A stretch of 25,324 nucleotides of DNA, from contig CAXHJY010000324.1 of NCBI GenBank assembly GCA_964016885.1, positions 1 through 25,324 of the forward strand, written 5' to 3'. The notes below the pieces were generated by a model. That model worked only from the letters and a program-made list of their open reading frames with translations. It had not been told where the DNA came from and did no database searches. This DNA comes from Eledone cirrhosa (taxonomy: Eukaryota). A program made the position numbers and the translations under genes. Every line of letters starts with the position of its first letter. Within the stretch, counting starts at the first letter, position 1. Of the stretch, positions 10,090 to 16,615 are shown piece after piece.

Positions 10090-10359
10090 TTATACCCTTT
10101 ATTATTTCCTTACCTTATAAAATTATGTTTTTTCACAAAAAAGTATTCTGTCTCTTATATATTCCATGTGCCATTACCAACCTCAATTTTCTCTATAACC
10201 TTCGCTTTGTGTAGAAAATTACACTTTTCATATATATATATATATATATATATACATACAGACACAAATATATATACATATATACACATATATATATACA
10301 TATACACACATCAGTTCCCGTATGATCAAGACACGGTCAGCCGACCGCACACTGCCCAC

Positions 10360-10413
10360 AGCAGGACAACTCGTCTAACCCATGCTAGCGTGGAAGAACA
10401 TTGTTGATGATGA
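10360..10413 (+). mobile_element. SINE 3' tail fragment with (GAT)n
   Basis: gtctaacccatgctagcgtggaagaacattgttgatgatgat resembles the tail at 3482-3537. Confidence 0.5.
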
Positions 10414-10458
10414 TACATATATACACACACATATATATATATACACATATATACATAC

Positions 10459-11511
10459 ATGGTGGCTGCCAACTCGATTGTAAACGTACTACTGATCTTT
10501 GTTATTTACCGATTATTAAATGTACCATTATGTTATGTTAAATTTTGTAAATTCTGTAATATCTTTATATTTTTATAATTTTTGTAATGTTTGGATAATA
10601 TTTATTTATTTACACCAATTGTATAGAAATTTGACCTCCATCTGTTTTTCTTGCAATGGTTTTGATATTTTTCCAACATAATTTTTCCAACATAATTTAG
10701 TTCTGTACAATATTTTTTCTCACCCGGTCTGTAACCCTATATGATTTGTTAAGTTATATGCCATTATATTATAATATTGTTATTATAGTGTTATTGTAAC
10801 ATTTATATTGTTTGTGCAAATTAACTGGAGATTATCTATTATATAATTATATAGTTTATTATATATTATATGTTTAGTTTTAATCATTTATTCTTCATTT
10901 TATACTGTAAATAATATATGTATTTTATTTTTATTTTTATTTTTATCTTTATTCTTATTATTCTTATTATTCTTATTTAAACTCTTAATAAGGGTTAGTT
11001 TGTGCTTGTATTGATGGAAATGTGTATTGATATATATGTATATATGTGTACATATGTATATATGTGTACATATGTATATTGGGCCTTTTAATATTATTTT
11101 ATTATTATTATTATCATCATCAATTATATATTATATTATATTATATATAGTACAATAATTCCCTCTCTATATCACCACCTTTGTTTAGCTTTTGCATTGG
11201 ACTATATTTGTAATATGGTTCAAAATGTTATTCACTTCCTTAGCAATTTTTACTTGATGTACACTCCATATTCTTCTGAGTTTTTGGCTTGTATTGGCCG
11301 ATAGTGCTTCTTATAGCTTTAATTGCCCTGATGAGTCCTTAATAGGACGAAACATTGTTGGCTAATAAAGACTTTTGATGTATTGAAGGCTTCTTTGGTT
11401 TATTTTCATAATTCTTCGGCTCTGTTTAATTTCATTGAGCTATACTTTTACTGTCATTTCTATAATACGAAGAGTGTGTTTAACTCCAACACACTCTAGT
11501 ATTTAAATTCT
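10459..11511 (+). mobile_element. ~1.05-kb non-coding hammerhead-bearing element (Penelope 3' region/pLTR-like) between TA microsatellites
   Basis: Very AT-rich with no ORF; hammerhead at 11317-11370; 10-bp hairpin at 11471-11497; first 18 bp identical to 22038-22055. Confidence 0.6.
11317..11370 (+). ncRNA. Type I hammerhead ribozyme with canonical core
   Basis: cuuuaauuGCC CUGAUGA GUCCU-uaau-AGGAC GAAA CAUUG UU|GGCuaauaaag; perfect 5-bp stem II, minimal stem III, predicted cleavage after 11359. Confidence 0.85.
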
Positions 11512-14500
11512 TATATATATATATATACATATATATATACACACACATATACATATATATATACACACACATATACATATATATATACATATACACATAT
11601 ATATATACATACATATATATATATATATATATACATATATATACATATACACACATATATATATACATATACATATATACATATATATACATATACATAT
11701 ACACATATACACATATATATATATACATATACACATATACATATACACATATACACATATATATATATACATATACACATATATATACACACATATACAC
11801 ATATATATATATATACATATATACACATATACATATACATATACACATATATATATACATATATACACATATATATATATACATATATACACATATACAT
11901 ATACATATACACATATATATATACATATATACATATATACACATATATACACACATATATATATACATATATATATATATATACATATATACATATATAC
12001 ATATATATATATATATACATATATATACATATATACATATATATATATATACATATATATATATATATACATATATATACATATATATATATATATACAT
12101 ATATATATACATATATATATACATATATATATACATATATATATACATATATATATATACATACATATATACATATATATACATACATATATATATACAT
12201 ACATATATATAAACATATATATATATATATACATATATATATATATATACATATATATATATATATACATATATATATATATATACATATATATATATAT
12301 ACATATATATATATATATACATATATATATATATACATATATATATATATACATATATATATATATATACATATATATATATATATACATATATATATAA
12401 TATACATATATATATATATATACATATATATATATATATACATATATATATATATATACATATATATATATATATACATATATATATATATATACATATA
12501 TATATATATATACATATATATATATATACATATATATATATATATACATATATATATATATATACATATATATATATATATACATATATATATATATACA
12601 TAAATATATATATACATATATATATATATATACATATATATATATATACATATATATATATATACATATATATATATATATACATACATATATATATACA
12701 TATATATATATATACATACATATATATATACATATATTATATATACATATATATATATATACATATATATATATATACATATATATATATATGCATATAT
12801 ATATATATACATATATATATATATACATATATATATATATACATATATATATATATACATATATATATATATACATATATATATATATACATATATATAT
12901 ATATACATATATATATATATACATATATATATATATACATATATATATATATACATATATATATATATACATATATATATATACATATATATATATATAC
13001 ATATATATATACATATATATATATATACATATATATATATATACATATATACATATATACATATATATATATATACATATATATACATATATATATATAT
13101 ACATATATATATATATACATATATATACATATATATACATATATATATATATACATATATATATATATACATATATATACATATATATACATATATATAT
13201 ATATACATATATATATATATACATATATATACATATATATACATATATATATATATACATATATATACATATATATATATATATATACATATACATATAT
13301 ATACATATATATACATATATATATATATATACATATATATATATATACATATATATACATATATATATACATATATATATATATACATATATATATATAT
13401 ACATATATATATATACATATATATACATATATATACATATATATATAATATACATATATATACATATATATATACATATATATAATATATACATATACAT
13501 ATATATACATATATATATATATATATATACATATATATATATATACATATATATACATATATATACATATATATATATATATATACATATATATATATAT
13601 ATATATATATATATATATACATATATATATATATATACATATATATACATATATATATATATACATATATATACATATATATATATATACATATATATAC
13701 ATATATATATATATATACATATATATACATATATATACATATATATATATATATATATATTACATATATATATATATATATATATATATATACATATATA
13801 CATATATACATATACATATATATATATACATATATATATATACATATATATATATACATATATACATATATATATATATATATATATATATATACATATA
13901 TATATATATACATATACATATACATATATATATATATATATATATACATATATATATATATACATATATATATATATATACATATACATATATATATATA
14001 TATATATACATATATATATATATACATATATATATATATATACATATACATATATATATATATATATATATATATATACATATATATATATATATACATA
14101 TACATATATATATATATATATATATATATACATATACATATATATACATATATACATACATATATATATACATATATACATATATATACATATATACATA
14201 TATATATATATATATATATATACATATATATATATATACATATATATATATATACATATATATATATATACATATATATATATATACATATATATATATA
14301 TACATATATATATATATACATATATATATATATACATATATATATATATACATATATATATATACATATATATATATATATACATATATATATATATACA
14401 TATATATATATATACATATATATATATATATACATATATATATATATACATATATATATATATATATACATATATATATATATACATATATATATATATA

Positions 14501-14635
14501 CATATATATATATACATACATATACATATATATACATATATATATATATATATACATATATATATACATACATATACACATATATATATACATATATATA
14601 TACATACATATACACATATATATACATATATATAC
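11512..14635. repeat. 3.1-kb (AT)nAC compound microsatellite
   Basis: Directly visible; interruptions are almost exclusively C on the + strand. Confidence 0.97.
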
Positions 14636-14794
14636 ATTGGAATAAATGCTCTGAAATAGCGATATATATGTGAATATAGACATAGAATATTCGAAAATAT
14701 TCTGTATGTTTATAATAAACATTTTGAAGACCTAATCGCTATAGAATAGAATACGTCACGTATTACAATTAGATTCTCGATAAAAGCAAGGGAA

Positions 14795-14837
14795 GTAATC
14801 TACGCGTTTCATTCTCGTTAGAAATCATCAGGACTAC
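14795..14837 (-). ncRNA. Type I hammerhead ribozyme (310-bp monomer 1)
   Basis: GUAGUC CUGAUGA U UUCU-aacg-AGAA U GAAA CGCG UA|GAUUAC; 6-bp stem I, palindromic stem III ACGCGU, cleavage between 14801 and 14800. Confidence 0.88.
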
Positions 14838-15104
14838 ATATCCAGTGCTTTTATCGAGAATGACACAGCTAGAGACTTATAGAATACTTAGCTGTGTACA
14901 GGAACTGGTTTGAAAGAGCGGTTGCCGGTCCGGCAGAAATTAGAAATTGGAATAAATGCTCTGAAATAGCGATATATATGTGAATATAGACATAGAATAT
15001 TCGAAAATATTCTGTATGTTTATAATAAACATTTTGAAGACCTAATCGCTATAGAATAGAATACGTCACGTATTACAATTAGATTCTCGATAAAAGCAAG
15101 GGAA

Positions 15105-15147
15105 GTAATCTACGCGTTTCATTCTCGTTAGAAATCATCAGGACTAC
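15105..15147 (-). ncRNA. Type I hammerhead ribozyme (monomer 2)
   Basis: Identical to 14795-14837. Confidence 0.88.
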
Positions 15148-15414
15148 ATATCCAGTGCTTTTATCGAGAATGACACAGCTAGAGACTTATAGAATACTTA
15201 GCTGTGTACAGGAACTGGTTTGAAAGAGCGGTTGCCGGTCCGGCAGAAATTAGAAATTGGAATAAATGCTCTGAAATAGCGATATATATGTGAATATAGA
15301 CATAGAATATTCGAAAATATTCTGTATGTTTATAATAAACATTTTGAAGACCTAATCGCTATAGAATAGAATACGTCACGTATTACAATTAGATTCTCGA
15401 TAAAAGCAAGGGAA

Positions 15415-15457
15415 GTAATCTACGCGTTTCATTCTCGTTAGAAATCATCAGGACTAC
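15415..15457 (-). ncRNA. Type I hammerhead ribozyme (monomer 3)
   Basis: Identical to 14795-14837. Confidence 0.88.
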
Positions 15458-15723
15458 ATATCCAGTGCTTTTATCGAGAATGACACAGCTAGAGACTTAT
15501 AGAATACTTAGCTGTGTACAGGAACTGGTTTGAAAGAGCGGTTGCCGGTCCGGCAGAAATTAGAAATTGGAATAAATGCTCTGAAATAGCGATATATATG
15601 TGAATATAGACATAGAATATTCGAAAATATTCTGTATGTTATAATAAACATTTTGAAGACCTAATCGCTATAGAATAGAATACGTCACGTATTACAATTA
15701 GATTCTCGATAAAAGCAAGGGAA

Positions 15724-15766
15724 GTAATCTACGCGTTTCATTCTCGTTAGAAATCATCAGGACTAC
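15724..15766 (-). ncRNA. Type I hammerhead ribozyme (monomer 4)
   Basis: Identical to 14795-14837. Confidence 0.88.
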
Positions 15767-16448
15767 ATATCCAGTGCTTTTATCGAGAATGACACAGCTA
15801 GAGACTTATAGAATACTTAGCTGTGTACAGGAACTGGTTTGAAAGAGCGGTTGCCGTCCGGCAGAAATTAGAAATTGGAATAAATGCTCTGAAATAGCGA
15901 TATATATGTGAATATAGACATAGAATATTCGAAAATATTCTGTATGTTTATAATAAACATTTTGAAGACCTAATCGCTATAGAATAGAATACGTCACGTA
16001 TTACAATTAGATTCTCGATAAAAGCAAGGGAAGTAATCTACGCGTTTCATTCTCGTTAGAAATCATCAGGACCTGATGATTTCTAACGAGAATGAAACGC
16101 GTAGATTACTTCCCTTGCTTTTATCGTTAGAAATCATCAGGTCCTGATGATTTCTAACGAGAATGAAACGCGTAGATTACTTCCCTTGCTTTTATCGAGA
16201 ATCTAATTGTAATACGTGACGTATTCTATTCTATAGCGATTAGGTCCTTCAAAATGTTTATTATAAACATACAGAATATTTTCGAATATTCTATGTCTAT
16301 ATTCACATATATATCGCTATTTCAGAGCATTTATTCCAATTTCTAATTTCTGCCGGACCGGCAACCGCTCTTTCAAACCAGTTCCTGTACACAGCTAAGT
16401 ATTCTATAAGTCTCTAGCTGTGTCATTCTCGATAAAAGCACTGGATAT

Positions 16449-16491
16449 GTAGTCCTGATGATTTCTAACGAGAATGAAACGCGTAGATTAC
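16449..16491 (+). ncRNA. Type I hammerhead ribozyme (inverted monomer)
   Basis: gtagtcCTGATGAtttctaacgagaatGAAAcgcgTAgattac read directly on the + strand; cleavage after 16485. Confidence 0.88.
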
Positions 16492-16615
16492 TTCCCTTGC
16501 TTTTATCGAGAATCTAATTGTAATACGTGACGTATTCTATTCTATAGCGATTAGGTCTTCAAAATGTTTATTATAAACATACAGAATATTTTCGAATATT
16601 CTATGTCTATATTCA

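Follow-up and report, generated by a model that had tools for sequence, protein, structure and literature searches.

Closest described systems

In D. virilis, the pseudo-LTRs (pLTRs) of Penelope bear a 34–37 bp repeat at the 3′ end (PMC2377424), in agreement with the short tail of ~34–37 bp that an earlier note on the present DNA had cited. One inverted pLTR in Adineta has a 31-bp tail (PMC3846280), and tails of 30–40 bp, a range called specific to this class (PMC8557442; PMC11167929), are described for Penelope-like elements (PLEs) generally (PMC8557442). A head-to-head inversion with outward 3′ ends and palindromes at the junction is given as the usual PLE arrangement; pLTRs are reported to suffice for mobilisation in trans, and no cross-mobilisation was described between two PLE types in Adineta (PMC3846280). 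PLEs are listed for Octopus spp., and the tail was earlier proposed to arise by endonuclease resolution (PMC8557442). In vitro, RT starts at two internal sites whose spacing matches the tail length, and the ends recorded in vitro and by RNA-seq fall at these sites; the initiation site has no homology to the DNA that is cut; and the ORF of the anole PLE has its first start site at 111–118 nt and its ribozyme cut at +26, so that synthesis starts ~85–92 nt past the cut (PMC11167929). A U3-A8 variant of the hammerhead has been described for PLEs (PMC4209133).

The enzyme that moves animal retrozymes has been an open question since 2020, when Cervera and de la Pena left LINEs open as mobilisers (PMC7229834). 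Mobilisation of retrozymes by PLEs is a published hypothesis, and in Xenopus, retrozymes co-occur with PLEs and resemble pLTRs (bioRxiv 10.64898/2026.07.22.740005); the published support consists of this co-occurrence and similarity, not of insertion chemistry. In the main texts of both papers, the word “tail” is absent and inverted arrays are undiscussed, while the supplements might show retrozyme ends. A word search of the main text of the 2026 preprint did not find Octopus, and our literature search brought up no retrozyme for which a tail has been reported.

Two inverted elements in a Duox intron

In the window analysed here (25,324 nt of Eledone cirrhosa, assembly GCA_964016885.1, contig CAXHJY010000324.1), the region is mostly low-complexity. 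Inside the (TA)n tracts of an octopod Duox intron, we found two mobile elements with ribozyme motifs, A and B, each a head-to-head inversion with the RNA 3′ ends outward and with one arm longer by 35 nt (A, 10195–10229; B, 14636–14670). They are unrelated in sequence, as the earlier note had held (local score 19 versus a shuffled mean of 21.2, p=0.86).

Structure A comprises the following features:
7453..7462, no strand: extra (GA)n/(CT)n, ten nt between the (TA)n flank and the short end of A; RT stutter or pre-existing target
7463..8785, minus strand: left arm, non-coding; ends at 7463 (short 3′ end) and contains a long dinucleotide tract
7571..7608, minus strand: left-arm hammerhead motif, U3-A8 variant of type I, from the descriptor scan
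8786..8945, no strand: spacer (inversion loop), 160 nt, unique
8946..10194, plus strand: right arm, inverted partner of the left arm
10047..10084, plus strand: right-arm hammerhead motif, U3-A8 variant of type I; predicted cut after 10084; helix I with 4/6 pairs
10195..10229, plus strand: tail, 35 nt, 110–145 nt past the predicted ribozyme cut; membership inferred from the flank only

Base-by-base extension placed the last complementary pair of A at 7463/10194 and the inner ends at 8785/8946, which sharpens the excess of ~33–36 bp given previously for the right arm to 35 nt. The (AT)n flank starts at 10230, directly after the tail. These 35 nt have no second copy within the window, so their membership rests on the flank: they interrupt a microsatellite whose polarity is the same on both sides (C 31/G 1 on the left, C 12/G 1 on the right) and are therefore probably element sequence. 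The arms differ in tract lengths (1324 versus 1250 nt).

By its architecture only, A is classed as a putative PLE, and it may be a 5′-truncated or non-autonomous copy. The earlier assignment to the PLEs holds to this extent, with no RT or GIY-YIG coding sequence behind it: six-frame translation gave no long ORF, Pfam found 0 families in the two longest unique sense frames, and a protein search with the frame from the hammerhead to the tail returned no matches. A candidate GIY-YIG C-terminus in the spacer was unsupported by six-frame translation and Pfam.

Structure B comprises the following features:
14636..16072, minus strand: left arm, 4.6 head-to-tail units of 310 bp, units 1–3 identical
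14636..14670, minus strand: tail, 35 nt, 130–165 nt past the predicted ribozyme cut and internal to the repeat unit
14795..14837, minus strand: hammerhead of unit 1, type I, with a 6-bp helix I, a 4-bp helix II closed by U-U, and a palindromic helix III
cores at 15141, 15451, and 15760 (minus strand) and 16455 (plus strand): further hammerheads of the same design
16073..16140, no strand: inversion centre, a 54-nt snap-back copy (3-nt loop), then a second snap-back on 3-nt microhomology
16141..16615, plus strand: right arm, 1.5 units, with the short 3′ end at 16615 adjoining the unit’s CA(TA)n motif

The units of B start at 14636, 14946, 15256, 15566, and 15874, and its left end is the first match to an internal copy, at 14636. 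Inverted, the right end reaches only as far as 16615, which corresponds to 14671; this leaves 14636–14670 unmatched and confirms the overhang of ~35 bp noted before. The tail of B is certain element sequence that recurs in the tandem units. The earlier remark that the end points are blurred by TA/GA microhomology is borne out with changes: at the B junctions the shared letters are CA (16614–16615) and AT (14636–14637), with a blur of ~2 nt at each end, and the GA part covers the ten extra nucleotides of A at 7453–7462. In unit 4, position 15601 lies opposite the end of the right arm of B. Three units separate it from the physical long end at 14636, so the short end is set by sequence and not by nearness.

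The whole of 14636–16615 is reproduced by one cDNA and two snap-backs, except for three 1-nt homopolymer indels. The right arm is without two 1-nt deletions of unit 4 and carries an insertion of its own; all three may be sequencing errors. The idea of two cDNAs stopping independently at the same base in the centre was dropped, the second junction being a copy of the first.

With its 310-bp tandem, type I hammerhead, and lack of an ORF, B is by architecture a non-LTR retrozyme, and its earlier description as an ORF-less retrozyme holds at that level. It has no LTR; its longest stop-to-stop frame is 59 aa, and the only database match has 26% identity (E 5e-4). The monomer is self-paired (z about −3.9) and low in GC.

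Hammerhead motifs

A descriptor scan located hammerhead cores on the plus strand at 10047, 16144, and 16455, and on the minus strand at 7608, 14831, 15141, 15451, 15760, and 16069. From these strands, the 3′ ends face outward in both A and B, as had been claimed. In A, the U3-A8 core with a 5-bp helix II and a palindromic helix III fits the descriptor (null 0.02 per shuffle) and the variant known from PLEs (PMC4209133); shuffled sequences fold as well as this region does (z −0.91). In B, each unit has a descriptor match to a type I hammerhead, and the region has a z of −6.28; self-cleavage and circular RNA in vivo are predicted properties. When the hammerheads of B and of another element in the window, D, were compared, 12/12 pairs were kept with six double-sided changes, a count from two sequences only. 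What B and D have in common is the hammerhead architecture, not flanking sequence (39/500 and 392/500 shuffles score as high).

Rfam searches of sub-regions gave no match to the hammerheads of A (right-arm copy searched) or B, while elements C and D were hit below cut-off as Hammerhead_1 (29.1 bits, cut-off 34) and HH9 (19.9 bits, cut-off 52), respectively. Over the whole window, Rfam was swamped by microsatellite-miRNA noise. In all, four hammerhead families (A, B, C, and D) are present in one intron.

Tail offset and target context

All ends of A and B lie 110–165 nt past the ribozyme cut, not at the cut, and none of the four carries poly(A). If the long end of B is taken as uniform over the 310-nt unit, 11/310 positions (3.5%) lie 30–40 nt beyond the short end, and 5/310 (1.6%) at 33–37 nt. 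When the end is required to have junction microhomology of 1, 2, or 3 nt or more, 8/249, 3/127, and 1/69 lie within 30–40 nt. The chance level for the B offset is 1.4–3.5%, for one copy found after the fact; these figures cover B only, with no comparable null for A.

The two tails are identical at 10/35 positions without gaps (p=0.52; local p=0.21) and have no clear common fold (z −1.74 and −0.68); a common motif that seemed visible by eye was not significant. Since the tails share no sequence, the same enzyme class is supported, not the same element family.

The short end of B adjoins the unit’s best match to the local target (11 nt, rank 1/310), which offers a second way of fixing that end, and the short end of A lies within a joint-best 8-nt match to its flank. 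The flanks of A and those of B keep the same C-rich polarity on both sides. Target-site duplications (TSDs) cannot be called inside a (TA)n microsatellite. An origin of the TA tracts by reiterative copying of B RNA was rejected, since the polarity is the same in both flanks and other inserts also lie within this tract.

Elsewhere in the window, a near-duplicate block of 260 bp (20800/24942, 97%), together with the homopolymer indels, points to an imperfect consensus. A LINE-like fragment (22040–22592) lies in the same tract, with a C2H2 finger at E=0.004, below cut-off. No tRNA genes were found in the window. Translated frames searched against protein sets gave no usable further copies, and there were 0 matches to a 23-nt pattern among bacterial and archaeal genomes or by blastn against plasmids.

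Comparison with known elements

PLEs with a C-terminal GIY-YIG (Penelope/Poseidon, Neptune, and Nematis; e.g., D. virilis Penelope, anole PAc, and Adineta Pen2a) resemble the structures found here in their inverted head-to-head arms and a 30–40 nt tail on one arm (a probable one in A), and further in a type I hammerhead (a candidate in A) ~100–170 nt before the 3′ end, an AT-rich target, and 5′ truncation. However, they have an RT/EN ORF, which neither A nor B has: the ORF of PAc begins at hammerhead stem II, whereas A has an ATG there and a stop after 21 codons. The short ends of A and B also show target microhomology, unlike those of GIY-YIG PLEs. Non-autonomous Chlamys PLEs such as MRC1 are described as ORF-less passengers with pLTRs and multicopy head-to-tail insertions, as here, but they come from green algae, belong to a clade without canonical hammerheads, and have a 3′ end that resembles that of their autonomous partners (PMC8557442). 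Metazoan non-LTR retrozymes (PMC7229834; Li et al. 2026, bioRxiv 10.64898/2026.07.22.740005) share with B the tandem units of 150–450 bp, a canonical-type type I hammerhead in each, low GC, the lack of an ORF, and a self-paired monomer. They are described as direct tandems, while B is an inverted array, and their helix II is closed by G-C, not U-U.

Origin of the inversions and tails

We consider it reasonably probable that A and B are young insertions made in trans by a PLE RT-endonuclease at (TA)n targets, with two RT starts 35 nt apart. The PLE protein would bind RNA 110–165 nt downstream of the hammerhead and cut both target strands; each target end would then prime DNA synthesis at its own internal RNA site, the two sites being 35 nt apart, so that one arm would receive a tail and the other none. 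The two-site origin of the tail, the cleavage of both strands, and the preference for AT-rich targets are taken by analogy from published PLE work. Because both cDNAs would have the same polarity, they could not pair; one would stall, snap back, and copy itself into sense DNA, which would join the partner cDNA by annealing and leave a head-to-head inversion around a small loop. The template of B would be RNA of the 310-nt retrozyme, in multimeric or circular form, which the enzyme went through 4.6 times. The PLE families used by A and by B may differ.

One cDNA is enough to build the centre of B, and the data do not call for a second primed one. The insertions might also be PLE-made from a single primed cDNA that started at the long end and snapped back, its sense strand ended at the short site by an endonuclease cut in the DNA duplex or by (TA)n microhomology capture; the tail would then be a resolution mark and would not reflect a second RT start. 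One cDNA with two snap-backs fully accounts for B, the short ends of A and B sit at top microhomology sites, and endonuclease resolution is the earlier proposal for the PLE tail (PMC8557442). We regard this as unlikely: the right arm of B lacks the two deletions of unit 4 and has its own insertion, although all three may be sequencing errors; the arms of A are unequal in tract lengths; and published ends, from in vitro work and from RNA-seq, fall at two RT start sites (PMC11167929). The arms of A and B overlap and both contain the 3′ region, unlike the non-overlapping parts of a LINE-type 5′ inversion; they lack poly(A), and the offset of B agrees with that of A and with a range that the literature had set in advance; all this makes it improbable that B was inserted by a LINE such as RTE or by templated break repair, with the short end set by microhomology, the long end 35 nt off by chance, and A either a true PLE remnant or joined to 35 nt of unrelated filler. 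In favour of that route are the single copy with its after-the-fact chance level of a few percent, the top-ranked microhomology of B’s short end, the LINE-like fragment in the same tract, and the place left for LINEs as retrozyme mobilisers (PMC7229834). A sequencing or assembly artefact, such as fold-back reads or a misassembled microsatellite, could be imagined in a low-complexity region with homopolymer indels and a 97% near-duplicate block, yet a fold-back read would invert the flank too, and here the C-rich polarity is kept; both breakpoints are internal and discrete, and B holds two nested snap-backs. An artefact is thus highly improbable.

Insertion by a PLE enzyme hence stays the best reading of the offset, as the earlier note had proposed in tying the retrozyme to Penelope machinery; it comes from one array, at a chance level of a few percent, with B’s short end at the top target microhomology. 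More tentatively, and as a possibility that we would not yet back, animal retrozymes may carry the two-site initiation signal of Penelope, which would make the 35-nt tail a family-wide fingerprint of the mobilising enzyme. The second end would be chosen by RNA sequence in any rolling-circle unit, and PLE inversions would arise when a cDNA snaps back at a structured site, a role that the hammerhead core would have here, and twin cDNAs are then joined.

Significance

The tail and the inversion are themselves already known PLE features, and one copy proves little. Their occurrence on a retrozyme array marks its junctions in a way that points to PLE enzymes, and it plausibly adds a new kind of support to an already published idea. 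With a tandem template, unlike with ordinary PLE copies, an end set by sequence can be told from one set by position. The mark also allows an inexpensive test across whole genomes and supplies a short RNA that could be used as substrate in the in vitro PLE system already available. From a single copy, our results hint that Penelope enzymes also move protein-less circular-RNA elements, and, on the more tentative reading above, the presence of four hammerhead families in a single intron would point to a large population of PLE-dependent retrozymes in the (TA)n tracts of octopods.

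Results

Two inverted structures lie in the window: structure A, a two-armed inverted element of Penelope type by architecture, and structure B, an inverted 310-bp tandem array with hammerheads, of retrozyme type. In each, one arm carries an extra 3' stretch, the tail (this end is the long end, the other the short end).

Features of structures A and B
7463-8785, left arm of A
8946-10194, right arm of A, after a 160-nt spacer between the arms
10195-10229, tail of A, a 35-nt continuation of the right arm, then (AT)n
14636-16072, left arm of B, 4.6 units of 310 bp
Between 16072 and 16141, centre of B, 68 nt
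16141-16615, right arm of B, inverted, 1.5 units
14636-14670, tail of B, 35 nt unmatched, since the right end corresponds to 14671

The overruns, which the earlier note had put at about 33-36 bp in A and about 35 bp in B, are thus 35 nt each, and its coordinates hold. RNA 3' ends face outward in both, as it had read them, and its view of the structures as unrelated agrees with the sequence comparison of the families (p=0.86); the two tails share no significant likeness (p=0.52 without gaps, 0.21 in local alignment).

In their unique parts the two arms of A are near-identical (482 nt at 99.6%, 168 nt at 99.4%), and almost all differences fall within the dinucleotide tract inside them (1324 vs 1250 nt). 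Structure A has no detectable coding sequence. It contains a U3-A8 hammerhead core with an imperfect helix I, an unremarkable fold (z -0.91) and no Rfam match; this variant has been reported in schistosome Penelope-like elements (PLEs; PMC4209133). A behaves like a PLE copy and is a candidate member, and its tail is putative element sequence, judging from the flank. Ten extra (GA)n nucleotides at its short end (7453-7462) extend the terminal CT dinucleotides of the element and are not matched in the right flank; they may reflect reiterative, telomerase-like priming.

In B, the type I hammerhead combines a 6-bp helix I with a long outer stem (z -6.28) and is without an Rfam match, the monomer folds well (z -3.9), and the tail belongs to the element sequence. 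By architecture, B is classed as a new non-LTR retrozyme family. In A the ends are 110 and 145 nt beyond the predicted ribozyme cut, in B 130 and 165 nt, so they are not ribozyme-made.

A hammerhead descriptor, written after three motifs had been seen, gave 12 matches from four families across the window; in 100 shuffles of 10,172 non-repeat bases it averaged 0.02 matches.

Further hammerhead elements
10461-11511, plus strand, element C, an AT-rich 1-kb insert in a TA tract, core at 11328
20800-21060 and 24942-25203, plus strand, family D, ribozyme architecture as in B

Element C matches Rfam Hammerhead_1 below cut-off (E=1.3e-4) and ends 152 nt past the cut, immediately after a strong hairpin (z -3.26); it looks like a non-inverted PLE-type copy. 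The same 16-17 nt beside (TA)n open both element C (10460-10476) and an insert at 22040-22592 (22039-22055), which looks like a LINE 3' end, presumably RTE, and whose minus strand codes for a weak C2H2 finger (E=0.004). Given this common start, a very short, oppositely oriented LINE cDNA may cap element C. The D and B ribozymes differ by compensatory changes amid unrelated flanks, with 12 of 12 pairs kept and six changed on both sides in this comparison of two sequences only. The D copies, 4.1 kb apart, share their 5' end and following sequence (97%), and are a local duplication or an assembly duplicate.

Exons of dual oxidase (Duox), residues 1234-1463 of the Octopus bimaculoides protein
230-364, minus strand
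1070-1225, minus strand
3839-4003, minus strand
5564-5800, minus strand, 92% to O. bimaculoides and 87% to Argonauta

No Duox exon lies right of 5800 among those mapped in the window, so A and B sit in a large octopod Duox intron, packed with (TA)n/CA microsatellite. This upstream intron exceeds 19 kb, provided the gene is continuous. Between 11512 and 24942, a CA-interrupted (TA)n tract of some 13 kb contains four different mobile inserts; it is a hotspot for microsatellite-targeting elements. An imperfect, MITE-like palindrome (208 bp, 86%) spans 6278-6485. Two short GC-richer inserts (10311-10412, about 6730-6920), in which ARAGORN found no tRNA, are probably SINE or LINE fragments.

Discussion

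We consider that both offsets probably arose by PLE two-site priming with snap-back joining. Two RNA sites 35 nt apart would serve PLE proteins as priming sites, one per target end, and snap-back of one cDNA would yield the sense strand joining the two halves. An anole PLE protein, a predicted dimer, cuts both strands of AT-rich DNA and starts reverse transcription within the RNA at two sites, the distance between them being the 30-40 nt tail (PMC11167929). The tail arm of A cannot be copied from the short arm, so synthesis started at the long end, with or without a second start at the short end. A one-strand double snap-back reproduces the centre of B exactly, and the model departs from the window by three 1-nt homopolymer indels: the strand halts where the hammerhead core begins on its 5' side, turns back across a 3-nt loop and copies 54 nt, then folds a second time at a 3-nt microhomology to copy itself. 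The snap-back site (16069-16073) lies at the 5' edge of the catalytic core, possibly a pause site for reverse transcriptase.

One cDNA thus suffices for this centre, which argues against the two-start detail, as does microhomology at the short ends. The short end of A lies within a joint-best 8-nt match to its flank; that of B adjoins an 11-nt match of unit to target, the best of 310, and the long end of B has just 2-3 nt of microhomology. A PLE route with one cDNA and the short end fixed at resolution is a minority reading. The right arm of B stops within unit 4 (opposite 15601), at a distance of three units from the physical long end, and its short end is therefore fixed by unit sequence, whether through a second reverse-transcription start, DNA cutting or microhomology. 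With that end fixed and the long end uniform, 11 of the 310 possible positions put the two 30-40 nt apart, and 5 put them 33-37 nt apart; nulls demanding junction microhomology give 1.4-3.2%. The 30-40 nt range comes from the literature, which makes the test fair, though it concerns a single event; insertion by a route other than PLEs, with the offset due to chance, seems to us unlikely, slightly more so than the one-cDNA route. An artefact is very improbable: strand polarity is the same in both flanks of each structure, which argues against a fold-back read and for insertion into one tract.

Tails of this size have precedents: a 34-37 bp repeat in Drosophila virilis Penelope (PMC2377424), bearing out the tail cited in the earlier note, and, in an Adineta PLE, a 31-bp tail, together with palindromes at the junctions and mobilisation in trans (PMC3846280). 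PLE tails, inversions, (TA)n targets and cephalopod PLEs are established, and non-autonomous tandem Chlamys elements are known (both from PMC8557442). Retrozyme mobilisation by PLEs was proposed in PMC7229834 and restated in PMC7761336 and PMC8969392, and co-occurrence and pseudo-LTR homology back the link (bioRxiv 10.64898/2026.07.22.740005). Giant squid hammerhead loci were counted, without further analysis in the relevant passage (PMC6962438). The word "tail" occurs 0 times in the searched retrozyme texts of PMC7229834, PMC7761336 and bioRxiv 10.64898/2026.07.22.740005, and our search of mostly open-access literature found no published tail on a retrozyme.

The footprint proposed to tie the retrozyme to Penelope machinery stands as far as the offset common to A and B, but it is seen in a single copy, and A is a candidate PLE. 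For the published PLE-retrozyme hypothesis, this offset of 35 nt provides credible evidence from one copy, and it opens the hypothesis to direct testing.
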